Positions 20,515-39,624 of a stretch of DNA of 64,000 nucleotides are shown piece by piece. The position numbers and the translations under genes were made by a program. The first letter of the stretch is position 1, and every line of letters begins with the position of its first letter. The notes below the pieces were generated by a model. The model did not search any database. It worked only from the letters and a program-made list of their open reading frames with translations, and was not told where the DNA came from. Origin of the DNA: an uncultured bacterium (GTDB taxonomy: Bacteria; Patescibacteriota; Microgenomatia; Levybacterales; UBA12049); contig CAWGXL010000002.1 in NCBI GenBank assembly GCA_963826535.1, positions 96,654 to 160,653 on the forward strand, given 5' to 3'.

Positions 20515-20566
20515 GAGGTAATTATATCAGAAGACCTGTTGTTTTAATTGATTTTCTAAAAACAGT

Positions 20567-21397: not shown

Positions 21398-21654
21398 AGA
21401 TTTGCATTATATTACAACTATAGGTCATTTGTCAAACGTTTTCACTGAAATAATTAGGTTTTGGCAATAATAATAATCATTAATCTTTTCGTTCTCACGC
21501 TTGCTCGCCTTGGGAGGGAATGCGGGTGACACCATGAATTAGGTAGTACGTTGTGGTGAATCCAATAGGCACAAATAAATTCCCTTTAGCAACTTCTGAA
21601 AGATTCCTTTTTTTCTCTATTGCTCCGCCTTATAGACAATTTCAGAAACTTCTA

Positions 21655-22563: not shown

Positions 22564-22638
22564 ATTTGAATTATATCAAAATGTCTAAAATCCGAAGAAA
22601 ACCATATAAATTTCTCTTCCTGTTCGATGAGGTTAAAA

Positions 22639-23037: not shown

Positions 23038-23144
23038 AGATATTTATGATTGGCTTATATAGAAAGAGTATACAATATACCCCTTCACAAGAAAAGTATA
23101 GAAACTTTATGCCACGAGATAGATGCTATTCGAATGCGTTTTAC

Positions 23145-23636: not shown

Positions 23637-23866
23637 AGAAGTGAATTATACAAATTTAGCTTTAAATGTCAAATTGACGCCGGATTTCCAGCACCCCCTT
23701 AGTGGCAAATCTCTAACTCTAAACGGGGATGGGGCCTATCCAACATTAACCCTAATGACCACATCCATCCATCATTTAAAGGCACAGATTTTATAAGCCG
23801 GGAAATTGCAAACTTTATTTACGAGAATCAAATTCTACCGAGGTGAAACCAACGCATATATAATAT

Positions 23867-24286
23867 TTATTTGTGTTTCTCTTTCATACGTTTAAACGAT
23901 TTTTCGATTAGCTTTGCAAGTACTGTTTGGTTTACATCAGAAAGCCGGTTGATATGTAAACACCCTCCGCTTGCCTTGTGTTTACCCAATCCTTTCAACT
24001 CTTCTCGATTGTCTTTATTACCTTCCAGGATATAAAGTGTTATGTTTTGTTTCCGTGGAGAAAAAGCTATTAAAGGCCAGTCTCCTTCCTGCTTACTTCT
24101 TTCTGACTTATAGTGGAATAATCCAAAACCAACGATACTTGTTCCCCACATGACAGCTTTTTCTCCGGTAATTTTTTCCATCATCGCAAGAATTTCAAAA
24201 CTGTTACTCCGTTTTTCATCCGGTTCAACGGTATTTAAAAATTCCGTTACGCTTTGACTTGTAGCTTTTGTTTTTAATTCTGACAT
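23867..24286 (-). CDS. DUF1801-like domain protein
   Basis: SVTEFLNTVEPDEKRSNSFEILAMMEKITGEKAVMWGTSIVGFGLFHYKSE... A truncated paralogous fragment lies at 31205-31299. Confidence 0.5.
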   Translation of the reverse strand: MSELKTKATSQSVTEFLNTVEPDEKRSNSFEILAMMEKITGEKAVMWGTSIVGFGLFHYKSERSKQEGDWPLIAFSPRKQNITLYILEGNKDNREELKGLGKHKASGGCLHINRLSDVNQTVLAKLIEKSFKRMKEKHK

Positions 24287-24311
24287 AGCCCAATTTTACC
24301 TGAGATACTTA

Positions 24312-24698
24312 CTATTTTTTCTTCATCCCAAACTTACCGCCATACCAAACAGCGAGTGCGGAAGTTATGACAAGGGATATTGGATACCAGTGTTGTGAAA
24401 GATTCCATCCTGCAATTACTCCAAGAAGCCCCATTACTGTTCCAATGATCAGTAAAATTTTTACATGACGCTTAGGTTTCGCGGGAGCTAATTTAGCTGT
24501 AACATATCCACCAAGAAATGCATATACAGTTCGGTAAATAAGAGCAATAAGTAATAGTGTTGGATCAAATAGCCCTTTAGAAGGCGGTGGGAAAAAGCCT
24601 ACTGCTTCAAGTATTGCATCGGTTGCAATAGATAAAATCACAACCGTCAGAATTCCTGCCAGAACAGCCCAAATACTTTTTAGTACATTTTTATTCAT
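24312..24698 (-). CDS. Small integral membrane protein (4 TM)
   Basis: Hydrophobic helices throughout. Length is 128 aa. Confidence 0.5.
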   Translation of the reverse strand: MNKNVLKSIWAVLAGILTVVILSIATDAILEAVGFFPPPSKGLFDPTLLLIALIYRTVYAFLGGYVTAKLAPAKPKRHVKILLIIGTVMGLLGVIAGWNLSQHWYPISLVITSALAVWYGGKFGMKKK

Positions 24699-24727
24699 AG
24701 CAACCTAATAATATCACCTGCATGATA

Positions 24728-25087
24728 TTAGACTTTTTTTGCGTAATTTGACATCCCGGTAATATCAATTGTTACCATAGGTTCATTTCCTACAACCCAT
24801 GCATTATGCCCCGGTTGAACAACACCGAAATCTCCTGGCCCGAACTCCTCCTCTGTTCCGTCATCCATTCTAACATGCAATCTTCCGGATATATGGTAGC
24901 CGGTATGCAATTGTTGACAGCTTTCCGTTTTCACAATTGGTTTAACGCATTCTGACCATTTCCATCCGGGTTCAAATGTCGCCCTACCAAATGTAACACC
25001 TTCAAGATTTACCAATTCAACCTTCCCTTTTGGAAAAGTCCGTGTCTCATCAGGATTATTTATACTTTTTTTCTGAATTTTTCCCAT
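24728..25087 (-). CDS. Cupin-domain protein
   Basis: G(x)5HxH-like and PG motifs (HTGYHISGRLHV...GPGDFGVVQPGHNAWV). Confidence 0.6.
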   Translation of the reverse strand: MGKIQKKSINNPDETRTFPKGKVELVNLEGVTFGRATFEPGWKWSECVKPIVKTESCQQLHTGYHISGRLHVRMDDGTEEEFGPGDFGVVQPGHNAWVVGNEPMVTIDITGMSNYAKKV

Positions 25088-25332
25088 ATTTTCTCACCCC
25101 CTTCCGAATAAGATTATACAACTTTTATAGATTTTATTAGTATAGTATATGTCTCCGAAGAAATCCATAGAAAACGGCATGAAAATTGTAGGAAAATTTA
25201 TAGCGTTTCAATTTGCGTATTATTATTTTGAAAACATCTTAATAATACCAACATATCTTTTTAACTTGCTCCTCCCTCTAACTTACAACTCCTCCAATTC
25301 AGCTTGACAACATTATTACACTTATTCTTATA

Positions 25333-26604
25333 ATGGATATACAACAGATGAAAAAAACTTCAGCATATCCTCACTATCTTATCTTGTTAGCTGGTTTAAC
25401 TTTTCTTGCATCTCTTTTCTGGTACTTAAAAATGTCATTTAGTGATACATTGATAATGTACAAGTTTGATTTACAAGTATATACTGTTGCTGCCCAAAAC
25501 GTCCTTTCCGGTGATAGCATTTATCAAACAGGTTTATTCTATTATGATCGCCTATTCTATTTTATCTACCCTCCCTTTGCTGCGCTTTTTTTCGTTCCCC
25601 TGGCAAACCTGTCATTGGAAGACAGTAAGTATATTTCAATACTGACAAATATAGCTGCACTTGTGTCTATAGCATGGATTTGTTGGGGGTTGCTTGAACA
25701 TTCGTGGGGAAGGAAGAGGTTAGTACTCACCTTATTTACTTCCGCACTATTATTATGGACAGAACCTGTTCAGGGAACATTATATTATGGCCAAATTAAT
25801 CTTTTACTCATGTTGCTGGTCTTAGCAGGTTTTTCAATGCGGAGAAACTCGATTTGGCAAGGGATATTAATCGGCGTAGCTACAAGTATCAAGTTAACTC
25901 CTGTAATTTTCATTGCCTATCTTTTTTTAACTCAACGCGTACGTGCCGGTATTATTGCTATTGGCACTTGTATCCTCGCCATAATTATTGGTTTTCTGCT
26001 CTTGCCCGATGACTCGCTTCGTTATTGGAGTGAGTTGCGTTATGGAGCAGGCTTGGTGGATGTTGGTATAAAATCATCATCCCTCAATGGTGTCTTGTTA
26101 AGGTTAATCAATCATACTGGAACTGCTAATGTTATTTGGTACATTGCTGCATCGGCGGTTGGAATATTGGGTATGTACCTTGCTGTACATAATAGTAAAA
26201 GGGGGAATGAGCTATTAGGATTACTTCTTTGTGCAATTACCGGATTACTAATATCACCTTTTTCCTGGACTCATCATTGGATATGGATGATTCTATTTAT
26301 TCCTTTGTTGCTCCATATATCTCTTCAAAAAAGAAACAGCCTTGGTTGGGTGAGTATATTGGTGTTGTGTGTTGTACTCCTCTCTTTCCGTCCTGGATAC
26401 CACCCTTTCCTTGGCGCAATTAGTAACGCTCTCGTCAATAAAAACCTACTTCTCTTTCACTTGTTTGATGCTATTACTCAAAACCTCTATAGTTTGGTCG
26501 GCATGATCATTTTAGGTTGCTCGGCTTTTATCGTGCTTTTTCATAATCGTTATAAAACTGACCCCGATCTAACTAACAAAATCATTGAGGACTCCCCGAT
26601 TTGA
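25333..26604 (+). CDS. GT87/DUF2029-family polytopic membrane glycosyltransferase-like protein
   Basis: DLQVYTVAAQNVLSGDSIYQ...YYDRLFYFIYPPFAALFFVPLANL is the DUF2029 N-terminal signature. 423 aa, multi-TM. Confidence 0.65.
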   Translation: MDIQQMKKTSAYPHYLILLAGLTFLASLFWYLKMSFSDTLIMYKFDLQVYTVAAQNVLSGDSIYQTGLFYYDRLFYFIYPPFAALFFVPLANLSLEDSKYISILTNIAALVSIAWICWGLLEHSWGRKRLVLTLFTSALLLWTEPVQGTLYYGQINLLLMLLVLAGFSMRRNSIWQGILIGVATSIKLTPVIFIAYLFLTQRVRAGIIAIGTCILAIIIGFLLLPDDSLRYWSELRYGAGLVDVGIKSSSLNGVLLRLINHTGTANVIWYIAASAVGILGMYLAVHNSKRGNELLGLLLCAITGLLISPFSWTHHWIWMILFIPLLLHISLQKRNSLGWVSILVLCVVLLSFRPGYHPFLGAISNALVNKNLLLFHLFDAITQNLYSLVGMIILGCSAFIVLFHNRYKTDPDLTNKIIEDSPI

Positions 26605-26722
26605 TTATAAATTAGGGATTTACCTATTCAACAGCTGTTTTGTATCTGAAATCTTATGAGTAAACGATATAAATAATAGTTTTGGTATTGTTAAAAAGGG
26701 GACATGCTTAGTTAGAAAATAA

Positions 26723-28801
26723 ATGAGAAATAACCTAGAACAAATAAAAACCTTCGTTAAAGCTTACAGGCGGATAATCATAATTGCTGCTCTCCTAATT
26801 TTTTCTCTAATCAACCCTCTCGTTTTTAATTACTACTATGGTAATCATGAAAAACTCTCTGAAACCTCTTATATCCTCCAGGATACTAAAAAATACGGTC
26901 CTGAATATTACGTTCATGCCCGTTTCCTTTATGAGGGCTATAAAAATCTTAAACTTGGCCGGTTTAATACACTATCTATAATTGATGAGAGTAATCCACT
27001 CTTTTCCTTTCCGCATTTTCAATTTTATAACATAGGACCCTCATTTATCCTCGCTGTTGCTAATTTCTATTTTCAGGATCCTATCAATAGCTATATCTTT
27101 GGAATTTGGTTAGCAACTTTTTTGTACGCTACAGGCGTCTATCTCCTCACTAAGAAACTAACCCGCTCTACCCAAACCAGTCTTCTACTTTCTTTTATTT
27201 TTATTACGAGCCCTTACTATATTACTATTTTTTTAAGTAGAAGTGCCTTTTCCGAATACATTGCTATCTCACTTATTCCAATTATTATATTGCAAATTTA
27301 TCACTTCTTGCAAACTTGCAAGGAACGGAACCCTAAATCTTTTTGGTTAAAATATTTATTCCTTTCAAGCCTACTAGTTATAAGTTCTACCATTTTTCTT
27401 CTTACTCATAATATAACCACCTTATTTTTCATAATAATTCTTGGGACTCCTGCTCTTATTCTCCTGGGTACAAAAGTAAAACCGGATGTTAAATCACTTT
27501 TATTGTTTATACCACCATCAGTTCTCATTCTTAGTAATATTTTATTTTATTGGATTCCCGTAATCACTTATGGTAACAAAACTAATATCAGTTCTACTTA
27601 TTCTCTACTACAAACCGGTCTACAGTGGAGTCCCTGGAATGTAGTTCTAGCCATTTTCCCAACCTCATCTCCCGGAGCAGTTAATACCGAGCTTTATTTA
27701 CAAATTGGCCTACCGACCCTATTACTATTTATCCTCTTTTTTAATTGGAGAAAAGCTTACATTCACCTACTAATTATATTGAGCTTTATTCTGGTTTGTT
27801 TCAATGTTTGGTCATATATTCCTCCTCTTTTCCATACTGTACAGTTTTCTTTAAGATTGTTGGCTTTTATACCACTCCTTCTTTTATTTGCAGCTAAGAG
27901 GCTTGGCAAAATTTCCTTCTATCTCCTTCTTTTTTCAACAATTTTTACTGCAATATTATTTTATCAAAGAGACACATCTTTTTATTTTCCGGCTCAAAAA
28001 TCGTTTAGCACTTTCCCAACTATAAATGATTGGGGTTTTTACCAAAATAGCGATTATAATGTTGCGCTTAAACCTAGTATGGACATTAAGAAGAGCCGGA
28101 TAAATGTTCGTGGAGAAACGGTAAATAATAATCAGGTATTCATTTTGGATAAAGTTAAAAATTCACTAGCGGTTACTTTCGAAATTAGTTTGAAAACTGA
28201 ATCTAACAAATTTGATAGTATAATATTTATCGACAGCCGACGTGATGAAAAAGGTGAGAGTATAAATTCCGAGATTCCTTATTCTGAAGTAAATGGTAAA
28301 TTTATTTATACTACCTGTCTGACAAATACTAAAGATGCCGACTTTTTTATTGTAAACAAAGGACAAGCTAATATTGTTTTTTTACAGATAAATAAGTACA
28401 ATGATTCACAGAACTCGTATATCGACGGTTTGTATCCCTACACTTGCAACTATAAATATAATCCGGTCAATCACAATTTTGATTTCAAGTTCGATAGGAA
28501 AGGCGAACAAGTTATTCTCCCTATTTATTACTCAACAGACAACCGGATTACTTCGTCAAATGATAAAGATATTGCCCCTTTTGGCGGCCTCCTTTACGCG
28601 GGTCACTCCTATACCGTTTTAGATAAAGATAAACTTGAAAGTAACCATGTCACAGTCAGTTTATTAGCTAATAATAGATTTATTCCTTTGGCTAAAACCT
28701 CACTGATGCTAACTTTATCAATACTTATTATTAGTTTAGTATTATTAACCACCAAAAAATTAAGAGCTTCAAAGTTTATAAACAAACTTAATAAAAAATA
28801 A
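26723..28801 (+). CDS. Large polytopic membrane protein (GT-C-like) with a C-terminal extracytoplasmic domain and a terminal TM anchor
   Basis: 692 aa. About 10 N-terminal TM helices, then a ~300-aa soluble region, then a TM helix. Confidence 0.55.
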   Translation: MRNNLEQIKTFVKAYRRIIIIAALLIFSLINPLVFNYYYGNHEKLSETSYILQDTKKYGPEYYVHARFLYEGYKNLKLGRFNTLSIIDESNPLFSFPHFQFYNIGPSFILAVANFYFQDPINSYIFGIWLATFLYATGVYLLTKKLTRSTQTSLLLSFIFITSPYYITIFLSRSAFSEYIAISLIPIIILQIYHFLQTCKERNPKSFWLKYLFLSSLLVISSTIFLLTHNITTLFFIIILGTPALILLGTKVKPDVKSLLLFIPPSVLILSNILFYWIPVITYGNKTNISSTYSLLQTGLQWSPWNVVLAIFPTSSPGAVNTELYLQIGLPTLLLFILFFNWRKAYIHLLIILSFILVCFNVWSYIPPLFHTVQFSLRLLAFIPLLLLFAAKRLGKISFYLLLFSTIFTAILFYQRDTSFYFPAQKSFSTFPTINDWGFYQNSDYNVALKPSMDIKKSRINVRGETVNNNQVFILDKVKNSLAVTFEISLKTESNKFDSIIFIDSRRDEKGESINSEIPYSEVNGKFIYTTCLTNTKDADFFIVNKGQANIVFLQINKYNDSQNSYIDGLYPYTCNYKYNPVNHNFDFKFDRKGEQVILPIYYSTDNRITSSNDKDIAPFGGLLYAGHSYTVLDKDKLESNHVTVSLLANNRFIPLAKTSLMLTLSILIISLVLLTTKKLRASKFINKLNKK

Positions 28802-29003
28802 TTCTTTCAAAATTATGATACTGACACTGAAAACTTTTCTAACCGGTTTAGTTTGCATATAAAGAAGTATTGCGGACTGAAAGATTTATGGTTCTTTTAT
28901 TGCTTTAATTATGGCAGGAATCTAAACTATATCTTGTTCCCCGAGGCTTGGATAAATATAACAAGATTACAAAATGGAATACCTCAAAAAAATGTTCAGG
29001 ATG

Positions 29004-29429
29004 CTAATGTACTTTACTTAGATCTCGGTTAACAAATGTTACTCCAAAAGCAAGCAGTTCTTCTTTATGCGGCGCGCTTTCTTCAATTGGATTCCAGATA
29101 TAAATCGCCTTTTTTAAATAAAAGGCGAGACCGATTTCCATAAGAACATTTGCACCGATATAACCCTTAATGCCATTCTTTTCATTATTGATGACTAAAA
29201 TACTATCTCCTTTTGCGATTTCATTAAAATTAGTTAAGATGAATTCCCTTTTTTGTTCAGGACTATTAACATCTTTAAAATGGGAGACCTCAAAGTCGTT
29301 CTTCTTTTTCATTATCTGTGCGGATACAGGTATATTTACCTTGAATCCTTTTACAATTAGCTCTTTTTCAATCTCAACCAACTCATTATAAAATGCCATA
29401 CTGGCACAAAGAAAAATTGTCTTTTTCAT
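29004..29429 (-). CDS. Nucleoside 2-deoxyribosyltransferase-like protein
   Basis: IFLCASMAFYNE...GYIGANVLMEIGLAFYLKKAIYIW fits the PF05014-like core (G..D.GT.fE.G.A.a..KP). Confidence 0.5.
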   Translation of the reverse strand: MKKTIFLCASMAFYNELVEIEKELIVKGFKVNIPVSAQIMKKKNDFEVSHFKDVNSPEQKREFILTNFNEIAKGDSILVINNEKNGIKGYIGANVLMEIGLAFYLKKAIYIWNPIEESAPHKEELLAFGVTFVNRDLSKVH

Positions 29430-29517
29430 ATTTAGATTATATCAGAGGAATAGTCATGATAATCCTAAGAAATCGATTAAAAACCTCATGAATTATGTAG
29501 AAATATTTGGGAGTTAT

Positions 29518-29793
29518 CTAAATTGCTTTTAATTTTTTTGTAAATATCTTAATTATACCAATTAAAAGAAACAACGGCCCACATCCATGAAAAATCACAC
29601 TTGCTGCGTTTTCTAGTCCATAAGACCAGTGAATTAAATTAGCATTACTAAGATGAGCAAGCACGAAACCAAATAAAATAAAAGAGGCACCAAGTATTAA
29701 CCAAAATTTTACGGGCCACTTTTTGATATTCATAATCAGATCATAACAGAAAGTTCTTTTAGAAGTTTTTGTTATCTTTTGTTTATTACCCAT
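29518..29793 (-). CDS. Small membrane protein
   Basis: 91 aa, two hydrophobic helices. Confidence 0.4.
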   Translation of the reverse strand: MGNKQKITKTSKRTFCYDLIMNIKKWPVKFWLILGASFILFGFVLAHLSNANLIHWSYGLENAASVIFHGCGPLFLLIGIIKIFTKKLKAI

Positions 29794-29891
29794 TTCAATA
29801 AATATTTTTCATCAAGATTTTCCATTTGTACTTGATTGACTCACTCTGTATCGTCAACTGTTAATTAATTCGAATATGATATTATAATTTT

Positions 29892-31133
29892 GTGTTTATA
29901 AAAAATAAAAGTTTTTTACTACTGGGATTATTAATTTTTATTGCTATTTTAATCCGCACCATCCACTTTCCAGAATATTTAAATTTTTCTCATGATCAGG
30001 GCGATTTTTCACTAAGGGCGTTTGAATTATACCAAACAAAATCAGTTGTCTTGATTGGGCCATCCACATCATTTATATGGAACGGACATGAATTTTATCA
30101 GGGATCAGTTATCTACTATATGTTTCTGCTTTTTCTATTACCTGCCAACTTCGATCCAATGAATGCTTCCTATTTATTTATGATATTTGCTGTAATAATG
30201 ATTATCCCGCTTTTTTTGGGCGTAAAGTATCTGCTAAATGAAAAATCTGCGTATCTGATTTCAGTCTTTTATGCGCTCCTGCCTTTATATATAGATTATA
30301 CAAAATTTTTATGGAACCCTAATTTCCAATTTGCATTATTACCTGTACTAGTCTTTCTTATGGGAATGTATCAGAAGTATAAAAGCACCATTTTATTTTT
30401 ATTTATTGGAGTATGGTTGGGGTTTTTACTAATGTTTCATTATCAGTTTGCACTTATTATTCTGGGAATAATGATCTATTATTTCGTTATAAAAAAAGAA
30501 AAAATAAAATTACTTCCATTATTAGTTTTAGGACTCGCGATTGGCTTCTCGCCGATAATTTTATTTGAACTGCGGAATAATTTTTATAATTTGAGAACGA
30601 TTTTATTAATCCTACCTCATTTCAACGAAATACATGAACCGAATAGCATATTACCGGTCCACTATTTTTTAAGTATATCTTTATTCGCTTTGATAATAAT
30701 TATCAGTTTTTTCAAACGTTTTATAACTTACCCGTTAATTATTTCAATATGTTTAATCCTATTTTTTTACTCACTTGTATTTTATAGTCTGAAGCTCGAA
30801 GCATTCAGTAATGAAACCGACTTGAAGTATCAAGGCTTACAAAAAATAGCGATAAAGATTAAAAAAGATGCCCCATCGAATTTTAATATCGTTGATCAAC
30901 ACACCCGAGACAATCAAGCAGCTGCCTTGAGATATCTCCTTACAGTTCAGTCTGTTGTACCTAATTCAAAAGATGATTACCATTCAGCCAATACGCTTTA
31001 TATTTACTCAAAAGAATCATTAGAAGATCTACTAAGAAATCCAATCTATGAAATTAAATCCTTTTTGCCTTATAAAAAAGCTACTTCTAGAAGAATAGAC
31101 AATCAATTATTTCTCTATACTCTTACTAAATAA
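29892..31133 (+). CDS. Polytopic membrane protein, GT-C (ArnT/PMT-like) glycosyltransferase fold candidate
   Basis: 413 aa. Multi-TM with a DQGDFSLRAFE-type first-loop motif resembling GT39/83 proteins. Confidence 0.5.
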   Translation: MFIKNKSFLLLGLLIFIAILIRTIHFPEYLNFSHDQGDFSLRAFELYQTKSVVLIGPSTSFIWNGHEFYQGSVIYYMFLLFLLPANFDPMNASYLFMIFAVIMIIPLFLGVKYLLNEKSAYLISVFYALLPLYIDYTKFLWNPNFQFALLPVLVFLMGMYQKYKSTILFLFIGVWLGFLLMFHYQFALIILGIMIYYFVIKKEKIKLLPLLVLGLAIGFSPIILFELRNNFYNLRTILLILPHFNEIHEPNSILPVHYFLSISLFALIIIISFFKRFITYPLIISICLILFFYSLVFYSLKLEAFSNETDLKYQGLQKIAIKIKKDAPSNFNIVDQHTRDNQAAALRYLLTVQSVVPNSKDDYHSANTLYIYSKESLEDLLRNPIYEIKSFLPYKKATSRRIDNQLFLYTLTK

Positions 31134-31204
31134 ATCTACGGAATGCATGATTCTAAATTTATTTAATAAACTCCCTTCAGCTCCGCCTGGTGAAAAATGT
31201 CCGA

Positions 31205-31299
31205 ACCTATTTTATGTATTCCCGTCTGCCTTTTTTTGCTCGGTTTCAATCGTCTCGAGAAATTTTTTAGGATTCTGATTTGTAGCTTGTGTTTTTAAT
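31205..31299 (-). pseudogene. Short remnant homologous to the N-terminus of the DUF1801-like gene at 23867-24286
   Basis: The minus strand encodes MAELKTQATNQNPKKFLETIETEQKKADGNT*, matching MSELKTKATSQSVTEFLNTVEPDEK.... The nucleotide stretch tgatttgtagcttgtgtttttaattccgccat matches tgacttgtagcttttgtttttaattctgacat near 24255-24290. Confidence 0.5.
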
Positions 31300-31345
31300 T
31301 CCGCCATAGGTTTATCCTCTCAAAAGAGGAAAGTATTATTCCTCT

Positions 31346-32650
31346 TCAATTTTTGTGATTTTTCAATGTAAAATTTACCCTAGATGATATCCCCTTGGTC
31401 AACGTTTGCATATCCTTACTGAAATGCTTCCAATCAATAAATTCAGAGGCGATGAAAAATAGGCTTACTACAGAGATCAGCTGAATCCGATACGTAAACC
31501 ACACATGTATATAAGAGTGGTTTGCAGCTATTAGATACCAGCCATAAGGCATAAAGCCAATAAGTATCCATGGGAGAATGTTTTTAATTTTCTGCTTATC
31601 AAAACGGAAATACTTTATCAAGAAGAGGAGAAGTAAAATTGCAAAAGACAAAACAATAACTTTATTGGTTTTATTATATCCAATCAGCTGAAAAAAGTTC
31701 AGCTTAATGACAGCAAGGTGGCTGAAGTTTGCGTCTGCCTGAGTAATGGTCCGGTTCATGATTTGATGTAATGCTGTCGAGATGGCTTGAGGAGTAAAAA
31801 ATAATTGAACCAACGCCCACTTGCTAAACCATAATGATAGATATCCCAGCGACCAGAAGAAAGCATGCAATAAAATGCGCATTATGTTTTTATCTACCGA
31901 TGCGGTAATAAGAAGTATAAGCCCCAGAGTCACAAGTGGTGCAGTTAAAAGATCAAAAAAAGTTGTTATTGCCCCAACAATAAAAAAGATGAGATAATGC
32001 AGCTGATTCTTATGCAGCGGTTTTTTAAGAAGGATTACAGCGCTGAGCAATGCGATTAAAAAAACAGCCGAGAATTGCATTGATCTGCTTAGATAGAAAT
32101 AATCCACTGAAAGGAGCCCCAAAACAAAAAAGGCTGTTTTCTTTCTTCCTAATCTTTTCCATGATAATGTGACGAATAACGCAAAAGCTACTAAATGAGC
32201 GGCGGTAAGGAGTATCCTGATCTCATTGTATGAAAATATGGTCAATAGCGGCCGCAAATAGACCAGATATCCGTGCCAGTATCTCTCATTTCCTGTTTGC
32301 GGCTTTGCGTTTTCTGTATATAACTTTTTTAAATTTGCTACTTGATTTACGCTATCAACTTCTGCTTCATACCTATAATTAACAAAAGCAGACCAGGCTG
32401 GCTTACTCTCGTCCACCGAATAAGCTGTATTTAGCATAATTGAATCCGTAAAGTTGTCGAGACCTATTTGCCGCCAAGGTACTCCGAAAACTGGATAAAT
32501 CCCCTCTTTTTCCATTACGCTTATTGACTTAGCAATATTACTTTCCAAATATGATGATGGAATCATACACGCCAAAATCAAAGATAGCGCAAAAGCTGAT
32601 AATAAAATAAGATAGGTTGCCAGCAATTGGTAGATAATTTTTACAATCAT
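31346..32650 (-). CDS. Polytopic membrane protein (GT-C-like / hypothetical)
   Basis: 434 aa with more than 10 TM helices. Confidence 0.5.
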   Translation of the reverse strand: MIVKIIYQLLATYLILLSAFALSLILACMIPSSYLESNIAKSISVMEKEGIYPVFGVPWRQIGLDNFTDSIMLNTAYSVDESKPAWSAFVNYRYEAEVDSVNQVANLKKLYTENAKPQTGNERYWHGYLVYLRPLLTIFSYNEIRILLTAAHLVAFALFVTLSWKRLGRKKTAFFVLGLLSVDYFYLSRSMQFSAVFLIALLSAVILLKKPLHKNQLHYLIFFIVGAITTFFDLLTAPLVTLGLILLITASVDKNIMRILLHAFFWSLGYLSLWFSKWALVQLFFTPQAISTALHQIMNRTITQADANFSHLAVIKLNFFQLIGYNKTNKVIVLSFAILLLLFLIKYFRFDKQKIKNILPWILIGFMPYGWYLIAANHSYIHVWFTYRIQLISVVSLFFIASEFIDWKHFSKDMQTLTKGISSRVNFTLKNHKN

Positions 32651-32793
32651 ACGGTAATTCTACAATGAAAGCTCTACTAATTCAAAGAACGAGTGGTAGG
32701 GAATGGAAGGTAAATTGGCAGGAAGCGGAGCCTGTCTTTATTGCTCCAAAAGAGTTTTCACTTGCTGGCCGATAGAAGAAGACCTAAAAAATA

Positions 32794-32940
32794 ATGTTGC
32801 TCCCCCAGCCGAGGATTAGTATAAATATAGACTTTACGGCTATTATACAGGCTTTTCAGGATATTCGATATATGGGAGAACTAAGACAAAGGTGGAGTGA
32901 AATTAAAAAGTTACAAGTTGATAGTTTTGCTTTTACTTAA
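32794..32940 (+). CDS. Small conserved ORF (48 aa), copy A of a three-member repeat family
   Basis: MLLPQPRISINIDFTAIIQAFQDIRYMGELRQRWSEIKKLQVDSFAFT. About 75% nucleotide identity to 36884-37030. Confidence 0.4.
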   Translation: MLLPQPRISINIDFTAIIQAFQDIRYMGELRQRWSEIKKLQVDSFAFT

Positions 32941-33490
32941 TAACTTTTAATAGAACACTCGTTCTTACTGTTGTTACCTCTTCTACTTTTATTTTTTCAA
33001 GCTTTACCTTATCTGTGTCTATATTTTCAAATAGTCTTAGGCCTTTTCCAAGGAGAACAGGCATAATATCTATCTGCAACTCATCGCATAGCCCAGCATT
33101 AAGGCATTGCTGAATGGTGCTTGCGCCTATTACCTGAACATCTTTCTCACTCGCTGCTTTCTTTGCCTTAAGAATTGCACTCTCAATACCATCAGTTACA
33201 AATGTAAAAGTAAGTTTGTCATTTCCTTTGGGATACTTTGCTGGAGGTGTATGTGTCAAGACAAAAATGGGAGTTTGAAATTCATAGTCATCGTTAGCCC
33301 ACGAAAATGGGTCTGCCATCTCATACACATGTCTCCCCATAATAACAGCACCTGTGTTTTTAATCATTTCCTGAAAAGTTGGAGCATCATGGAGTTCACT
33401 AAAATCTGAATAAAGCTTTTCCACACTTCCATTACTGTCATTGATAAACCCGTCCAAAGACATGGTCATACCAGCGATTACTTTTCCCAT
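32933..33490 (-). CDS. Dihydrofolate reductase-family protein (RibD C-terminal domain-like)
   Basis: MTMSLDGFINDSNG...VIMGRHVYE...VIGASTIQQCL...LLGKGLRLFE pattern. Confidence 0.65.
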   Translation of the reverse strand: MGKVIAGMTMSLDGFINDSNGSVEKLYSDFSELHDAPTFQEMIKNTGAVIMGRHVYEMADPFSWANDDYEFQTPIFVLTHTPPAKYPKGNDKLTFTFVTDGIESAILKAKKAASEKDVQVIGASTIQQCLNAGLCDELQIDIMPVLLGKGLRLFENIDTDKVKLEKIKVEEVTTVRTSVLLKVIK

Positions 33491-33633
33491 AGAAGAATTA
33501 TATCAAATGAAGCATCTTAAATCCGAAAAAATCCATAGAAAACCAAAGCAATGCTCCACCTGTATAAGAGCGTCTAAATATTTTAAATCAAACTAAAAGT
33601 TAAAAGATTTTGATATAATTCTAATTAATTACT

Positions 33634-34413
33634 ATGATAGACGGTCAAGAACAACCTAGTAAGACCCGCATTGAGGCAATTCAGCATATGTCTAATGAAG
33701 CTTTTGCAAGAAAGTATTCTACTGAAACTACTCCCCCTAGTCACTTCTCAGATAAAATAGGTTATTTTATTACCAATGAAAACGATTATCCATGGTCGTT
33801 GAAAGATATTAAAGTACGTGGAGGAATTCATCTTGCCGTTATGGGAGGGGTTGATCCCGTTTTAGGTCAGATAGCAGCAGCTTCTCCTGATTTAACAATA
33901 ATGATCGACATCAACCAAAGTTCCCTACAGGTTACTACGGAAGGAAGAATAAAACCCATTGCAGAATCACAAAATAGTACAGAATATTGGAGAAAAGTAG
34001 GAGATTATTTCAATAATACCGTAAAAAAGATTAATCCAAATCGCTGGGACTTCCCTATAGATCAAGACAGTATGAATGGTGGATGGTCATCCCCTGAGCA
34101 TTTTCCTAAAGTGAAAGACGCGGTAGCCAGAGGTAGAGTCAAATGGGCAGCAGGAGATTTAACCAAAGATGGAATTGAATTGGCATTGAAGTTAGCCAAT
34201 GAAACAGAAAGCCAAGTTCGGCTAGTCTATGTTTCTAATATTTTTGACTACTCCAAGCATAATAAAGAGGAGTTTGCAAAAAGATTAGCTAAAGGAATTG
34301 AAGAAGGGACATTAGATCCTCACGCGCAAATTATTCATACTGCTTCGATAGAAGGACTTAAGACCGAGATTTACGATGTCGCAGATTACATACATGCTAA
34401 TACTTCAGAATAA
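33634..34413 (+). CDS. Hypothetical protein
   Basis: 259-aa ORF, no motif recognised. Confidence 0.45.
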   Translation: MIDGQEQPSKTRIEAIQHMSNEAFARKYSTETTPPSHFSDKIGYFITNENDYPWSLKDIKVRGGIHLAVMGGVDPVLGQIAAASPDLTIMIDINQSSLQVTTEGRIKPIAESQNSTEYWRKVGDYFNNTVKKINPNRWDFPIDQDSMNGGWSSPEHFPKVKDAVARGRVKWAAGDLTKDGIELALKLANETESQVRLVYVSNIFDYSKHNKEEFAKRLAKGIEEGTLDPHAQIIHTASIEGLKTEIYDVADYIHANTSE

Positions 34414-34511
34414 TTAGATTCAATCCTCCCAACCGTTGTATTCCAAAAATGAGGCTAAAATATTCTGCTCCTTGGGCTAGACAGTGTTAGAACCTAATGC
34501 CTGAAGACTTA

Positions 34512-34862
34512 TTATTTCCGCAAAATCTTCTCCATCGCTTTGCCCTTTGATAACTCATCGATCAGCTTATCCAAATAGCGAATTGCCTGCATAGTTGGCT
34601 CTTCGATGTCTTCTACTCGGACACCGCAGATCACACCTTTGATCAAAGCCCGCGAAGGATTAAGCTTCGGAGCTTCCGCAAAGAAGGTCTCAAAGTCTGT
34701 CTTTTTTTCCAGTTGCGCTCTCAACTCTTCCTGGCCATACCCTGTCAGCCAACGGATGATTTCATTAACTTCTGTTTTTGTACGTCCTTTTTTCTCCGCC
34801 TTAGCAACATAAAAGGGATAGACACTCGCGAAGCTCATTGTATAAATTCGATGTTTTATCAT
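34512..34862 (-). CDS. DUF2200-family protein
   Basis: [34 protein letters not shown]...[39 protein letters not shown]. Conserved DUF2200 signature, recalled from memory. Confidence 0.55.
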
Positions 34863-34957
34863 GATACCTCCTTGCTTCTATAGTTTTCTTTATTTTATCA
34901 CGAGAATATAGGGCTCCGCCTGTTAGAAAATACCAGAATCTATTTCTTTACTTTACG

Positions 34958-35305
34958 TTAATCACAATTAGGAACGCCCATAAAGCAAGGCCATTGGTCA
35001 ACAATCCAGCTTCCCCAAATATAAGCAATAAGTGCCAGACCCGCGACTCGCAATAAAAAGTTTATAGGATTTTTTGTTAAAGATTTTCCAGACGTTATGT
35101 TTTTTACAATTGGTGCGAGTATTAGTACGAAAACTGTTTGAAGCAACCAAGTAAAGGTAAAAAGAGCCACAGGAAAGCCTTTGTTAAATTTCCATCTATT
35201 TACAAGCTCAAGAGCGATAAAAGGGATAAGAAAAATAAAACCTAAAGCTGCCGCCGAGATAAAAGTGGATTTTTCAAGAAGTTTTTGCATAATGTAATTA
35301 TACAA
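34958..35305 (-). CDS. Small membrane protein
   Basis: 115 aa, 3-4 TM helices. Confidence 0.45.
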   Translation of the reverse strand: MYNYIMQKLLEKSTFISAAALGFIFLIPFIALELVNRWKFNKGFPVALFTFTWLLQTVFVLILAPIVKNITSGKSLTKNPINFLLRVAGLALIAYIWGSWIVDQWPCFMGVPNCD

Positions 35306-35350
35306 AATTGACCTTGATCCGCCTAATGGACGAATTCAGAACCTATTTTA

Positions 35351-35944
35351 CTAAAACGAGCCGGTTTTAACTTTTCCAAAGCGCTTATAGTTTGCGAATA
35401 TTATTCCGCTTGGAGAAGTTTTAGATTCTAATAATTTAAAGGCTGCTGGAATAGTACCATTATCAAACAAGCGTTTTCCCTTCCCAAGAGTTATTGGGAA
35501 AATTTTTAGCCAAAGCTCATCGACTAAATCATTTTTAAGAAGTGTTTGAATTAAATTTCCGCTGCCGTAAACTTTAAAATCCGGACCATCTTGTTGTTTA
35601 AGTTTTTTTAATTCTTCAACTACATTGTTGTTTATGAACACAGAGTTACTCCATTTGTGTTTTTTAAGAGAATTTGAAACAACATACTTTGTAGCATCGT
35701 TAACACCGGGCCATGCATTTTCATGCTGGGGCCAATAAGAAGCAAATATCTCAAACGTTTTTCTGCCAAGAAGTAAGCTGAAAGGCTGCTTCATCTGCTC
35801 GGCCATGACTTTTCCTGAAAAATCATCAAAATAAGGGGCAGTCCACCCACCGTATTTAAAATCACCTGAGGTATCTTCTTCTGGTCCGCCGGGGGCTTGC
35901 ATAACACCATCAAGCGTAATAAATTCAAGAACAACTATCTTTCT
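35351..35944 (-). CDS. Dihydrofolate reductase-family protein (RibD_C-like), second paralog
   Basis: Start set at internal MRKIVVLEFITLDGVMQAPGG.... The upstream extension in the ORF track looks non-coding, and a TGTTATAAT box sits 6 nt before this ATG. Confidence 0.65.
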   Translation of the reverse strand, partial: RKIVVLEFITLDGVMQAPGGPEEDTSGDFKYGGWTAPYFDDFSGKVMAEQMKQPFSLLLGRKTFEIFASYWPQHENAWPGVNDATKYVVSNSLKKHKWSNSVFINNNVVEELKKLKQQDGPDFKVYGSGNLIQTLLKNDLVDELWLKIFPITLGKGKRLFDNGTIPAAFKLLESKTSPSGIIFANYKRFGKVKTGSF

Positions 35945-36139
35945 CATATAGCTATTATAACATACGATTTTGAGGATAATTTTTAGCTCCACCTCATGGA
36001 CAACGTCAGAACCTTTTTTATGAATTCTATATGAAGGAGGCCTCAAAATAACACTAAATATTGAATAACGGTAATAATATATTGACAAACGATAAGATAT
36101 TTATTATGATAAGGCTATCTAATACTAAGTGAGGTATTT

Positions 36140-36617
36140 ATGAAAAAAGGTTCAACATTATTCTTAAAAGTAGTAATTTTACTTATCGCAATTGGCGTGC
36201 TTGCATGGCTGATTTGGTTTCCTCAAATTGAAGGAAGAGCTGCTAACTTAGATCTAATCAGTATTTATACAGATCCGCTTATTATCTATGGTTATATAGC
36301 TTCAATCCCATTTTTTGTTGCGTTATATCAGGCATTTAAGCTTTTAGGCTATATTGATAGCAATAAAGTTTTTTCTCAATCATGCAGTGAAAGCAGTGAG
36401 GAATATAAAATACTGTGCAATCATAATCAGTGGCTTAATTGTGCTAGGAATACTATACATAAGGTTATTTGTTAACGGTGACGACCCGGCAGGTCCTACT
36501 GCCTTGGGCATTTTTACTACTTTTGCTTCTATCGTAATTGCAACTGCTGCTGCTGTTTTTCAAAGACTTCTCCAAAATGCCGTAGACATAAAATCAGAAA
36601 ATGATTTAACTGTATGA
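36140..36617 (+). pseudogene. DUF2975-like membrane protein gene interrupted by a frameshift near a T6 run (about 36369-36374)
   Basis: Two overlapping ORFs (36140-36475 and 36354-36617) in different frames together give a ~160-aa 4-TM protein. It lies immediately upstream of a YozG-like XRE regulator. This is the classical DUF2975-YozG pairing. Confidence 0.5.
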
Positions 36618-36626
36618 GGTGCAATT

Positions 36627-36833
36627 ATGGCAATAATAATAAATATCGATGTCATGCTGGCAAAGCGAAAAATGAGCGTCACTGAACTTACAGAGAAGGT
36701 TGGTATAACCATGGCTAATCTTTCCATCTTGAAAAATGGAAAGGCAAAAGCTATCCGTTTCTCAACTTTGGAAGCGATTTGCAAAGCCTTAGATTGTCAG
36801 CCTGGAGATATTCTGGAATACAAAAACGACTAA
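36627..36833 (+). CDS. XRE-family HTH transcriptional regulator (YozG-like)
   Basis: 68 aa. MSVTELTEKVGITMANLSILKNGKAKAIRFSTLEAICKALDCQPGDIL. Confidence 0.75.
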   Translation: MAIIINIDVMLAKRKMSVTELTEKVGITMANLSILKNGKAKAIRFSTLEAICKALDCQPGDILEYKND

Positions 36834-36883
36834 AACGCCGACGGATAATTTTGGACGATCGATTTAATGGTTGTTTCAATACC

Positions 36884-37030
36884 TTGCTCCGTGAGCCTTG
36901 GATTAATATAACCCTAGACTTTGAAGCTATTATACACGCATTTCAGGACTTACACTATATTGGGGAAATGCGGCAAAGGTGGAATGAGATCAAAAAACTA
37001 CATGTCGGTGTTCCATTATCAACTATTTAG
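36884..37030 (+). CDS. Small conserved ORF (48 aa), copy B of the repeat family (TTG start)
   Basis: LLREPWINITLDFEAIIHAFQDLHYIGEMRQRWNEIKKLHVGVPLSTI. Same 147-nt length as copy A. Confidence 0.4.
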   Translation: MLREPWINITLDFEAIIHAFQDLHYIGEMRQRWNEIKKLHVGVPLSTI

Positions 37031-37173
37031 AGTGTAATGGTTAGTCAAAAAACGAGCAACTTACAAAAAAGAATTCTGACGACCATATATGTAGGAGGTG
37101 AGTGTGAAAATATAGTTTCAGTTATGGAATCGCTTACCCATTTTGGACTTAGAACAATGTTTGAAAGACTATT

Positions 37174-37603
37174 TCATTTAGTAGGAGAAAATTCAATGAT
37201 CCACTCAATACCGTATTTATCTCGAAACATACCCGCATATGAGCCCCACGGACTGTCTCCTATAGATCCTTCTACTTCTCCTCCAGCCGAAAGGCCAGTA
37301 AATAATCTGTCCGCCTCTTCTTTACTTTCCGTACTTACCAAAATTTTGCTTCGATTTTCATGCTCATTTACTCGCCCCAAAACCTCCGGAACATCATTGG
37401 CTATCAGCATAGTACTGATACCAATAGGTAAGGCAATATGCATTATTTTATTTTCTTCTTTTTCTGGCACTGGGAATTCAGTCACTCGCAATGTCTTTGA
37501 AACGTACTACTTTCGCAAACTCTCCGCCGAATACTGATTTATAAAACGTAAATGCTTCTTCTGCATTACCGTTGAAGTTAATCCAAGGATTTATTGTTGC
37601 CAT
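37174..37603 (-). pseudogene. PhnB-like VOC-family protein gene with a frameshift near 37493
   Basis: The upstream frame encodes MATINPWINFNGNAEEAFTFYKSVFGGEFAKVVRFKDIASD* (PhnB N-terminal signature). The downstream frame continues ...PVPEKEENKIMHIALPIG...SPWGSYAGMFRDKYGIEWII. Confidence 0.55.
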
Positions 37604-37643
37604 ACGTTATATGATATCAAATTAAAGTAATTTGATAAAGAGC

Positions 37644-37718
37644 TTTTATTTGGCTCCCCCGCGAGGACTCGAACCTCGAACCAATCGATTAACAGTCGAT
37701 TGCTCTACCATTGAGCTA
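37644..37718 (-). tRNA. tRNA-Asn (anticodon GTT), CCA encoded
   Basis: The reverse complement gives TCCCCTG-TA-GCTC-AATGGTA-GAGC-A-ATCGA-CTGTTAA-TCGAT-TGGTT-CGAGG-TTCGAGT-CCTCG-CGGGGGA-G-CCA. Confidence 0.8.
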
Positions 37719-37802
37719 CAGGGGAATGTCAAAAGTTCCTGCCGGGTTTGAAGCGGCGGAACGTATCCGTTATTTTATCATTAAAGAATGCATAAATCCA
37801 TA

Positions 37803-38711
37803 CTAAATCTTCCACCCAAGCTCTATCTTAATCTCCTTCACTGCTTTTTCATATTTGTCTTTCGTTAGCTGGTTATTTAATATGCAATACTTTTTACTAG
37901 TTAGTCCAAAGCAACCGATGCAATCAGAGCAGTTTGTTAGCCTTTCACTATAGTAACAATTTGAGCAACCTTGACTTGATACAAGAAACGCAGAGTCATA
38001 GCAGTCGGTTACCTCTATCGTTTCATAACATCGCTCGCATGCAGTTTTTATTACAGGGTTTCCATATGTGAAAAGGACATCCCAACAATTCTTTGTGTTA
38101 AAACCACTATTATACATATATCCGCAGTTTTCAGCAGTATAAGTATTAAAGCCCCAATAACAGTTCTTTGAATCATATATGTAATCTCCATATGGACTGT
38201 TTTCGCTATTAAGTTGAATGCTTGCAGGATGTGGAATCTGTTTTTTTAACTCAAACATTTGTTTTAGAATTTTTTCAGGTTTTTCCTTATTTAGTACTTC
38301 CACCTTTTTCAAATATTCATCTTTGGTATATTGCCGGTTAAATATACAATATTTTTTATGAGTTAGTGCAACACAACCAAAACAATCAGTGCAAGTGTTT
38401 AAAAATGATGAATAATGGCAATCAGTAGAGTTATTACAATTTATAAGATAAGTACAGCTATTACAATTATTGCAATCAATAGATTCATAACATTTTTCTG
38501 AGAATACCATCTGATAAGAATCTACGACCTTATTACCATTTGCCAATGTTGTATAGATAGAATCTGATAGTTCTAATACACAGAAGCAGTAAAAGCAATT
38601 CTTGATATTATCTACAAAATCTACGTATACACTATCAACAGCTGAGCGAATCATAGCAGACGGTACAGGAATCGATTTTTTCAGAAGTTCATATTTTTCC
38701 AGAAAATTCAT
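37803..38711 (-). CDS. Cys-rich protein, paralog B (internally duplicated CxxC-rich modules), unknown family
   Basis: MNFLEKYELLKKSIPVP.... Two modules each contain NC..C...LINCNNSTDCH.S..LN.C.DC.GC..L..KKYCI.N.Q.TK. C-terminus is LGWKI. Confidence 0.6.
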   Translation of the reverse strand: MNFLEKYELLKKSIPVPSAMIRSAVDSVYVDFVDNIKNCFYCFCVLELSDSIYTTLANGNKVVDSYQMVFSEKCYESIDCNNCNSCTYLINCNNSTDCHYSSFLNTCTDCFGCVALTHKKYCIFNRQYTKDEYLKKVEVLNKEKPEKILKQMFELKKQIPHPASIQLNSENSPYGDYIYDSKNCYWGFNTYTAENCGYMYNSGFNTKNCWDVLFTYGNPVIKTACERCYETIEVTDCYDSAFLVSSQGCSNCYYSERLTNCSDCIGCFGLTSKKYCILNNQLTKDKYEKAVKEIKIELGWKI

Positions 38712-38715
38712 AATC

Positions 38716-39624
38716 TTATACCTTCCACCCAAGCCCTTTTTTTATATCTATTAAAGCTTTTTCATATTGCACTTTTGTTAGCTGATTATTAAGTATACAA
38801 TATTTTTTATTCTTCAAACCCACACACCCGAAACAGTCAGAGCAGTTTAAGAGCTTTGTACCGTAGTGACAATTCATGCAACCCTCACTATATGTTAAAA
38901 AAGCGCAGTTATAACAAAAATCAGTATAAACATTCTCATAACATAGCTCTGCAAAACGATTAGTCTCCGGAGTCCCTCCAGTATGAAATATATCCCAACA
39001 ATGCTTCGTTAAACCACAGAAGTACATAAATCCGGAATTTTCAGAATAGTAACCTTGAAATGCCCAGTAACAGTTCTTTGAGTTATAGATATAATTACCA
39101 TATGGACAGTTCTCGCTATTGGATTGCTGACTTGCAGGATGAGGGATTTTAGGTTTAATTTCAAGCATTTGGTTAAGAATCTTTTGAGGATCTTGCTTTT
39201 TTAAATCCTCAACTTTTTTCAAATATTCATCTTTGGTATATTGCCGGTTAAATATACAATATTTTTTGTGATTTAACCCGACGCATCCAAAACAGTCAGA
39301 GCAAGAGTTTAATAAAGCGGAAAAATGGCAATCTGTAGAATTATTACAATCAATTAAATATGTGGAGCTATAACACTTAGTACTTTCAATACATTCGTAG
39401 CATTTTTCCGACTCAGTCACAAAATCACAATCTACAAGTTTATTCCCCCAACCATAATATGTATAAATACTATCAAAAAGCCTAGTTCCATCAAAGCAAT
39501 AATAGTCGTTCTTTCCTATATAGACAGCATCTACATATTCGCACTCAACTGTATTAGGACCGATTGTTATCGCTGGCACGGGAACAGATTTCTTCAGAAG
39601 CTCATATTTTTCAAGGAAAGTCAT
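38716..39624 (-). CDS. Cys-rich protein, paralog A (internally duplicated CxxC-rich modules), unknown family
   Basis: MTFLEKYELLKKSVPVP.... Same architecture as paralog B, with about 60% identity by eye. C-terminus is LGWKV. Confidence 0.6.
   Translation of the reverse strand: MTFLEKYELLKKSVPVPAITIGPNTVECEYVDAVYIGKNDYYCFDGTRLFDSIYTYYGWGNKLVDCDFVTESEKCYECIESTKCYSSTYLIDCNNSTDCHFSALLNSCSDCFGCVGLNHKKYCIFNRQYTKDEYLKKVEDLKKQDPQKILNQMLEIKPKIPHPASQQSNSENCPYGNYIYNSKNCYWAFQGYYSENSGFMYFCGLTKHCWDIFHTGGTPETNRFAELCYENVYTDFCYNCAFLTYSEGCMNCHYGTKLLNCSDCFGCVGLKNKKYCILNNQLTKVQYEKALIDIKKGLGWKV

Follow-up and report, generated by a model that had tools for sequence, protein, structure and literature searches.

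Repeated 48-codon units beside a Levybacterales tRNA-Asn gene as probable detached tails of large serine recombinases

A 64 kb stretch of the genome of an uncultured Levybacterales bacterium (assembly GCA_963826535.1, contig CAWGXL010000002.1, positions 96,654 to 160,653), hereafter the window, contains three copies of a short open reading frame (ORF) that encodes a conserved 48-residue peptide. All coordinates of the copies below are window positions. The question raised by this locus is what kind of entity such a unit represents. The initial annotation proposed a selfish mini-element, a relic C-terminus of a lost gene, or a bona fide small-protein family, and of these the second comes closest. 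The 48-codon units are very probably the severed C-termini of large serine recombinases (LSRs), in which the element's attachment site (attP) lies in the 3' coding region of the LSR gene, the chromosomal target (attB) is the 3' end of a tRNA-Asn gene, and integration splits the recombinase gene. The peptide corresponds to an LSR C-terminal tail, but it is not a relic of decay: site-specific recombination appears to have cut the tail off at a fixed point, and its copies mark where the units of an array meet.

The repeated unit and its relatives

Copy A (32794-32940, plus strand) has an ATG start followed by 48 codons and a stop. Copy B (36884-37030, plus strand) begins at an in-frame TTG within a longer ORF (36779-37030) and likewise comprises 48 codons and a stop. 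A repeat search of the window aligns 32797-32918 with 36884-37005 over 122 nucleotides (nt) at 75% identity, and 27 positions are invariant between the two peptides, in agreement with the original description of two equally long copies at about 75% nucleotide identity. When a profile of homologues was run against six-frame pieces of the window, copies A and B were recovered at E=1e-28 and E=7e-31, with the next piece at E=0.055, a similarity well outside what chance would produce.

The third copy, C (28934-29032, plus strand), had been described as a degenerate member retaining the first codons and a QD pair. In the same six-frame search its frame reaches E=0.89, which is not significant at the protein level, and the QD pair is without support. 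Its family membership is limited to the first ~30 nt (TTGTTCCCCGAGGCTTGGATAAATATAAC). Against a position matrix for these 30 nt, built from other loci alone and run across the window, A reaches 38.6 bits, B 41.8 and C 25.6, and the best other plus-strand site reaches 5.6 bits. Copy C is a real but truncated family member: its surviving part (28936-28965) corresponds to the core and right arm of the attachment site (att) described below, the remaining tail codons are gone, and their place is overlapped by the 3' end of a minus-strand gene (29004-29429). The matrix also has one strong match on the opposite strand, at ~11600-11630 (minus strand; 21 bits; TTGGCTCCCCCACCCTTTGATGAC), within a plus-strand gene (10567-12243). 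This may be a chance match or a secondary target site.

Relatives of the peptide were sought at several levels; related loci are designated L### and proteins P####, with P0021 being the LSR of L004. A search of 5.8 billion proteins returned 20 small predicted proteins of 43-83 residues that have the core LPEPWxNITLDFEAIIxAFQDxRYIGELRQRWNEIKKLQ in common and N-termini that are unrelated. A scan of one genome per species yielded 75 loci, mostly in metagenome-assembled genomes (MAGs) of the candidate phyla radiation (CPR)/Patescibacteria, including Levy-, Gottesman-, Roizman-, Davies-, Ames-, Shapiro- and Woesebacteria and Saccharimonadales; the remaining loci are in MAGs labelled Gammaproteobacteria, Acidobacteriota or Chloroflexota. 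Six-frame profile searches identified 132 copies in 79 sources, with a maximum of eight per 13 kb. Of these copies, 95 are near-complete and 37 are truncated or frameshifted. A scan of viral contigs found no relatives, a Pfam search of the three window peptides matched no family, and Rfam gave no match at the repeats at either the gathering threshold or a relaxed E-value. The plus-strand placement of the three window copies, correctly recognised from the start, follows a rule that applies in every related locus: all 132 copies in the 79 sources lie on one strand within their locus.

The unit is under coding constraint. Between copies A and B, dN is 0.19 and dS is 1.59 (nonsynonymous and synonymous divergence), for a dN/dS of ~0.12, and the unit does not behave as the decaying non-coding repeat that had been considered as an alternative. 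Among 55 ungapped copies from many loci, the corresponding proportions of differences, pN and pS, are 0.25 and 0.73 in the proposed frame, as against 0.34/0.34 and 0.35/0.27 in two out-of-frame controls. The constraint is not uniform along the unit. Codons 1-10 have no codon periodicity (entropy 0.86/0.93/0.98 at codon positions 1/2/3), while codons 11-40 have strong third-position variation. Because periodicity is confined to codons 11-40, the first ~30 nt appear to be constrained as DNA and the rest as protein.

Serine recombinase tails and a common break point

Clustering of ORFs across loci singled out one cluster whose members invariably share the strand of the peptide copies. The proteins in it are LSRs with Resolvase, Recombinase and Zn_ribbon_recom domains, and the peptide constitutes the last 40-48 residues of LSRs of 530-614 residues in L004, L057, L062, L072 and L078. 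Copy A is 72% identical to the C-terminus of the L004 LSR, and the match to this P0021/L004 tail has E=1e-31 for A and E=1e-29 for B. An earlier candidate explanation, in which the repeats were displaced 3' ends of an ordinary chromosomal gene, was abandoned when the long ORFs were recognised as LSRs. Clustering of neighbouring genes revealed no conserved partner, such as a directionality factor, other than the LSR and the chromosomal rpoD/dnaG flank discussed below.

The C-termini of related recombinases point to a single break. Most of the 120 best database matches to the L004 LSR align over only 91% of its length. In this set, 35 proteins run into tRNA-like sequence (..LLPRVDSNHEP), at least 46 end one or two codons past LLP, the peptide tail is found in 5, at least 10 have another tail (LL-R-x-M-D-x-V-R-T-Y), and a third tail (LVDxFRNREIE) is present in 3. 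Other LSRs of the cluster end in ...W-L-P-R-V-D-S-N-H-E-P and read directly into the reverse complement of tRNA-Asn at TGG CTC CCC, which corresponds to the CCA end and acceptor stem of the tRNA. The stop at the Leu-Pro codons CTC CCC is identical in family members without the peptide, and the frame is kept in both LSR bodies and detached fragments. In 85 stacked junctions, conservation starts abruptly at G|CTCCCC and is high through +25, a span equal to the length expected for one half of a serine-integrase attP. The left arm of the L037-type LSR (GTTATAATAAG, 11-21 nt before the core) may be the inverted counterpart of the right arm (ATTATTATAAC, +15 to +25), an arrangement that would place the symmetry centre within CTCC.

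The anatomy of individual inserts agrees with this break point. In L037 and L052, the LSR ORF runs into an intact reverse-complement tRNA-Asn, and a peptide copy is located to the left of this LSR, at 7.6 kb (L037) or 10 kb (L052); the gene halves therefore flank one insert. L057, L062 and L078 contain a further unit downstream, whose peptide fragment makes the LSR before it complete. A matching LSR body within the same locus is present in L037, L052, L057, L062, L069 and L078. In the 26 sources with a tRNA-Asn 3' end in matching orientation, all 38 peptide copies are on the left side of that end. The tRNA-like arms are found 28 times on the plus strand and three times on the minus strand. Next after the tRNA come rpoD and dnaG in many CPR loci, and that flank is therefore chromosomal. 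An intact tRNA at one end, 3'-end repeats at the other junctions and a single orientation, the hallmarks of a tRNA island, are all present.

Nine of the tRNA arms belong to tRNA-Asn genes with a group I intron in the anticodon loop (L008, L024, L028, L029, L045, L048, L049, L057 and L063; Rfam RF00028, 56-97 bits; for example L045 13297-13485, minus strand). These genes were missed by ARAGORN because the intron interrupts them, and apparent tRNA half fragments behind some LSRs proved to be such intron-containing genes. The intron-bearing loci are mostly CPR, with some labelled Gammaproteobacteria; the tRNA-Asn of the window is intron-free.

Complete LSR units in other loci have variable defence cargo, and the LSR alone is conserved between units. 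The cargo includes SMODS/AGS_C proteins (similar to cyclic-oligonucleotide-based antiphage signalling systems, CBASS), BglI-type and type I/IIG restriction-modification systems, HerA-like ATPases, Qat (KAP NTPase, QatB and TatD) and SduA (Shedu) with a methylase and Vsr. Complete recombinase units with defence cargo at the same tRNA site occur in L037 (10120-14536), L052 (11399-16455), L001 (2703-7609) and L002 (706-9329), and full islands of this kind measure 7-10 kb.

Structural models suggest what the break removes. On its own, the peptide is predicted to have an extended N-terminal segment and then two helices (residues 14-22 and 24-47), with a mean predicted local distance difference test (pLDDT) score of 74. 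In the model of LSR P0021, the folded body extends to ~537. It is followed by a low-confidence stretch (residues 541-572), within which the LLP core codons fall, and by two tail helices (571-579 and 581-599). The break would thus fall in a flexible linker, and the truncated protein is predicted to keep its catalytic and DNA-binding domains. The earlier judgement that the peptide is not a type-I toxin appears reasonable in view of its charged character, its modelling as a soluble two-helix tail and the lack of any matching RNA family. The variable stretch of 8-10 residues after KKLQ frequently finishes with alanine or small hydrophobic residues (LAFA, LSLA, LSTA, LVVA and FAGA; P0021 and P0038), endings that are reminiscent of ssrA-like C-terminal degradation tags.

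Taken as a mechanism, attP would lie inside the LSR's own coding sequence, at Leu-Leu/Trp-Leu-Pro codons (TTG/TGG CTC CCC) that would copy the CCA end and acceptor stem of tRNA-Asn on the opposite strand, with the 3' end of the chromosomal tRNA-Asn as attB. Integration, presumably catalysed by the LSR itself, would leave the LSR body next to the tRNA, with its reading frame continuing into the tRNA gene. The final ~45 codons, made up of the right att arm (the first ~26 bp, or P' arm) and the codons of the two-helix tail, would be placed at the far end of the insert, where they would resemble an orphan small ORF. In the excised circle the full gene would be rebuilt. Repeated insertion at the same core would build a one-directional array, and at the junction between neighbouring units (LSR body, core, next tail) a full-length LSR would be restored. 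The tail itself might contribute to activity, directionality or stability.

The cassette array in the window

The LSR-less array of the window (21622-37725) adjoins a minus-strand tRNA-Asn (GTT) gene (37651-37725; 71.9 bits). Nine junctions with one core, all on the plus strand, can be recognised in it. Three are of the peptide type, with cores at 28936 (copy C), 32799 (copy A, G|CTCCCC) and 36886 (copy B); copy A consists of a ~26 bp att right arm followed by helical LSR tail codons (LLPQPRISINIDFTAIIQAFQDIRYMGELRQRWSEIKKLQ...), and copy B forms the final junction ahead of the tRNA. Five to six further junctions of the same array are marked by a second repeat family, here called D4, which had not been noticed initially. 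The tRNA, with a core at 37653, probably represents the attB-derived terminus: the plus-strand sequence of its 3' end (TGGCTCCCCCGCGAGGACTCGAACC) provides the same core, and the translation of this end, LPREDSNLEP, is the tail of LSR P0054. The copies had been placed at the 3' ends of unrelated genes, which is true, but it is more informative that A, B and C are each convergent with a minus-strand cargo gene and that the series terminates at the tRNA-Asn.

The D4 repeat (GCTCCGCCT...CAGAACCTATTT) encodes LRLMDNVRTYF-like peptides in the frame of A and B, with the in-frame pattern LRL[MLIV][DEK]N[VTF]R[TIN][YF][FY], and matches a different natural LSR tail, that of P0079. Over all loci, ten D4-type arms are on the plus strand and none on the minus strand. 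The leftmost recognised junction (21622-21654) combines the core with a short DxVRTY-type LSR tail (LRLIDNFRNFYQ). The others are at 31180-31212 (LRLVKNVRTYFM), 33553-33585 (degenerate; GCTCCACCTG...), 34913-34945 (LRLLENTRIYFF), 35316-35348 (IRLMDEFRTYFT; E=6e-4 to the LSR P0079 tail, LLRAMDAVRTYFT) and 35986-36018 (LHLMDNVRTFFM; E=0.015), all on the plus strand. The junction at 33553 is preceded by a left-arm motif (ATCCATAGAAAACC) that recurs in many other loci. D4 repeats were also considered as decayed tRNA 3' halves; they do resemble the tRNA arm, yet they match the natural LSR tail motif, and the idea was set aside.

Units between junctions are 0.4-2.2 kb long and carry mostly minus-strand genes. 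The array cargo comprises RibD_C (twice), glyoxalase-like, DUF2200, DUF1801 and APH proteins and a DUF2975 gene with a helix-turn-helix (HTH) regulator. The cargo of cassette A is a RibD_C (dihydrofolate-reductase-like) gene (32933-33490, minus strand) with 85% nucleotide identity to L043 and L067, and that of cassette B is a glyoxalase/bleomycin-resistance-like gene (37174-37491, minus strand), the upstream region of which reaches as far as the core at 37653. The remaining cargo that separates A from B (33634-36833), in units common to L060, L026, L035 and L044 and reversed in L031 and L008, consists of a DUF7790 gene (33634-34413, plus strand), a DUF2200 gene (34512-34862, minus strand), a gene for a 115-residue protein (34958-35305, minus strand), the second RibD_C (35351-~35950, minus strand) and the DUF2975 gene with its HTH_26 regulator (36140-36833, plus strand). 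The initial suggestion of a selfish mini-element captures part of this organisation, in that the fragments belong to mobile cassettes or islands, but the 147-nt unit itself is not the element.

Cargo recurs at 66-94% nucleotide identity in arrays labelled as other taxa, with differing neighbours and arm types. The glyoxalase unit (37170-37658) has 77-90% nucleotide identity to L011, L018, L073, L009 and L022 and a partial match in L036. In L011 and L073, the homology stops at the core that follows. What lies past this core differs: the tRNA in the window, a peptide copy in L011 and L018, and another arm in L073. RibD_C units recur in L043, L067 and L060, and the DUF2975/HTH unit recurs in L035 and L044 and, inverted, in L031 and L008. 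As LSR-less units, the cassettes of the window were presumably moved individually and in trans by an LSR encoded elsewhere.

Several other features of the region may be mentioned. A stretch of 48 nt at the 3' end of the gene for the 115-residue protein (34954-35001) is 94-96% identical to L018 10164-10211 and L003 5680-5727, while the surrounding protein and its L018 and L003 counterparts are only ~41% identical overall. The left limit of the array is provisional, with accessory-type genes continuing to ~19.3 kb. The small minus-strand accessory genes at 19280-25087 (two DUF1801 genes, an alpha/beta hydrolase, an APH phosphotransferase, a bleomycin-resistance-like glyoxalase and a cupin) suggest that the island reaches left beyond the leftmost recognisable junction. 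On the far side of the tRNA-Asn are tandem paralogues without Pfam matches (37803-38732 and 38716-39624, both minus strand; 71-82% nucleotide identity over repeated stretches), followed by a type IV secretion coupling-protein-like ATPase (39640-42000), and this opposite flank may be another mobile element. Elsewhere in the window, an AdoCbl-II (cobalamin) riboswitch (47258-47330, minus strand; 40.4 bits) is located upstream of a DUF6580 gene (46079-46627) and a cobalamin adenosyltransferase gene (45503-46069). At the right end (~60300-64000), the G+C content rises from ~35% to ~67% within ~200 nt, with long overlapping ORFs on both strands past the jump; these last 3.7 kb are foreign in composition and probably derive from another organism or contig through a chimeric join.

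Competing readings, known systems and meaning

It could be argued that the peptide is a stand-alone small-protein gene, perhaps a regulator or recombination directionality factor, that its 5' end is a preferred LSR target and that the LSR fusions are products of integration. Such a gene would explain the strong in-frame purifying selection, detached copies included, as well as the ATG, GTG or TTG just before CTC CCC in most detached copies, the GAGG 5-10 nt upstream in some left arms, the 43-83-residue proteins predicted by gene callers and the modelling of the peptide as a two-helix unit. However, the NTG before the core coincides with the TG that is conserved as part of the att core, with position -3 nearly uninformative. 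In single inserts next to tRNA-Asn (L037 and L052) the peptide is at the far end, other members of this LSR family have one of two further, unrelated tails at that position, and copies are never found to the right of the tRNA or in the opposite orientation. The stand-alone gene is considered quite unlikely. A bona fide small-protein family is not supported as the principal description of the unit, even if detached copies may be translated on their own, given that 37 of the 132 copies (~28%) are truncated or frameshifted and that the N-terminal boundary coincides with the DNA crossover site. A structured non-coding repeat, whether an integron attC-like site or a sequence resembling a miniature inverted-repeat transposable element (MITE) or a repetitive extragenic palindrome (REP), is far less probable still. 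Small, mostly same-strand accessory genes separated by ~125-nt repeats, with cargo typical of integron cassettes, do invite the comparison, but folding of either strand of A and B as single-stranded DNA is no better than that of shuffled controls (z +0.72 to -0.38), Rfam gives no match, and no tyrosine recombinase was found among the window ORFs. The folding result, the codon-periodic substitutions and the homology to an LSR tail have effectively refuted this reading. A diversity-generating retroelement was also rejected: the mismatches between A and B are not adenine-specific, and the protein sequence is kept in dozens of loci.

A different objection concerns the short units and not the origin of the peptide. 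The LSR-less units may be what deletions left of full-size LSR islands that accumulated one after another at tRNA-Asn, in which case they would not be individually mobile. Many arms are degenerate (copy C and the junction at 33553, for example), profile searches find no LSR in the window, other loci have full 7-10 kb defence islands at the same site, and left arms resemble LSR 3' coding ends. Against this, the same one- or two-gene units are present in several loci labelled as different taxa and recur with changed neighbours and order, sometimes inverted; their homology ends at the following core (L011 and L073), and L003, L007 and L012 likewise have units of 0.4-2 kb in which the genes are intact. 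Remnants are thus a rather improbable account of the short units, though one that deserves to be taken seriously.

Some observations sit uneasily with the severed-tail interpretation itself. Intact detached copies are still under purifying selection in the closest pairs (pN/pS 0.18, from 5 pairs only). Splitting of the gene could accommodate this only if units repeatedly pass through a stage at which the tail gets translated, as it would be when a unit is excised or lies directly downstream of an LSR body. No LSR body or other recombinase was found in the window by tblastn, profile search or Pfam scan of annotated ORFs (those of at least 140 residues throughout, and shorter ones within 17-42 kb), and the model therefore requires an enzyme that acts in trans or has since disappeared. 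Homologous cargo has a peptide arm in the window and a D4-type arm in L011 and L023, and this swapping of arm types counts as a difficulty because simple excision and reinsertion of cassettes does not predict it. L033 and L058 also hold a tRNA-Asn in the opposite orientation, neither an excised circular form nor an empty attB was observed, and the comparative loci are all from MAGs, in which repeats can be mis-joined.

Some aspects of this arrangement have precedents. The "suicidal" integrases of the Sulfolobus spindle-shaped virus (SSV) type have an att site inside the integrase gene and a tRNA target, and fragments of the gene flank the integrated element; a 2021 review describes such integrases as exclusive to archaea (PMC8371274). 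Here, too, the att site would lie within the integrase gene, the target is a tRNA gene, and partitioning of the gene can be deduced from insert ends and truncated homologues. Unlike in the SSV-type systems, the enzyme is an LSR and so has no family relationship with tyrosine recombinases, it occurs in bacterial and for the most part CPR hosts, and the break removes just a ~45-residue C-terminal tail beyond a disordered linker, leaving the folded domains intact. Genomic islands in tRNA genes (tDNAs), of the Islander/TIGER type, resemble the present loci in having an intact tRNA at one end and a 3'-end repeat at the other, tandem accretion, variable cargo and, in complete units, an integrase gene beside the tRNA. 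They differ in that the integrase here is an LSR and the repeat is short (core and arm) and within the integrase's own frame. The 2014 Islander paper stated that only tyrosine-family integrases were known to target tDNAs (PMC4383910). Full-text literature searches, in which not all journals were covered, gave no account of serine recombinases with a tRNA gene as target or with a gene that integration splits, whether in CPR or in other organisms. Island or cassette accretion at a tRNA gene is known; what differs here is the unexpected enzyme family and the proposed site within the enzyme's reading frame.

Staphylococcal cassette chromosome (SCC) elements offer another comparison. Their Ccr LSRs insert at the 3' end of rlmH/orfX, composite tandem arrays form between direct repeats of the insertion site, and units lacking a recombinase are mobilised in trans. 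LSR insertion at the 3' end of a conserved gene, tandem arrays and units without their own recombinase are all paralleled here, but the present system has a tRNA target, an att site inside the recombinase gene and units as small as single genes of 0.4-2 kb. Integrons similarly have a one-directional array of small, site-bounded cassettes from which the recombinase can be absent, as in clusters of attC sites lacking integron-integrases (CALIN). In contrast to integrons, the repeats in the window have no attC hairpin and encode a recombinase tail, the array is anchored on a tRNA gene, and the IntI tyrosine recombinase was not found among the window's annotated ORFs. In the integration-dependent immunity of mycobacteriophages, reportedly described by Broussard et al. 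in 2013, a tyrosine integrase is said to act on an attP inside the repressor gene. There as here, integration would alter the C-terminus of an element-encoded protein through an attP in coding sequence, although the affected gene is a repressor in the phages and the recombinase in the present case.

These comparisons allow a broader proposal, which is offered tentatively and is more doubtful than not. It may be that the loci belong to an integron-like cassette system run by an LSR, mainly in CPR bacteria, in which a site in the 3' end of the recombinase gene mimics the 3' end of tRNA-Asn and each cassette has an exon-like tail module. Insertion or excision beside the recombinase would then swap or remove its tail, and single-gene cassettes would be exchanged across phyla in trans. 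If this is the case, tail swapping would constitute a built-in switch of recombinase activity, stability or directionality.

The main consequence is that an apparent orphan micro-protein family becomes a marker of recombination junctions, with which islands and cassettes can be mapped to the base even where CPR genomes are poorly annotated. The loci indicate that serine integrases can use a tRNA gene as a target, which was stated not to be known in the Islander survey (PMC4383910), and that the gene-splitting arrangement of archaeal tyrosine integrases has an independent bacterial counterpart. LSRs that combine a defined attP of ~50 bp with a natural attB in a tRNA gene also hold practical interest for genome engineers. 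For the organisms themselves, the short units carry detoxification- or resistance-like genes and the complete units carry defence systems, which probably makes these arrays places where organisms with very small genomes exchange adaptive genes.

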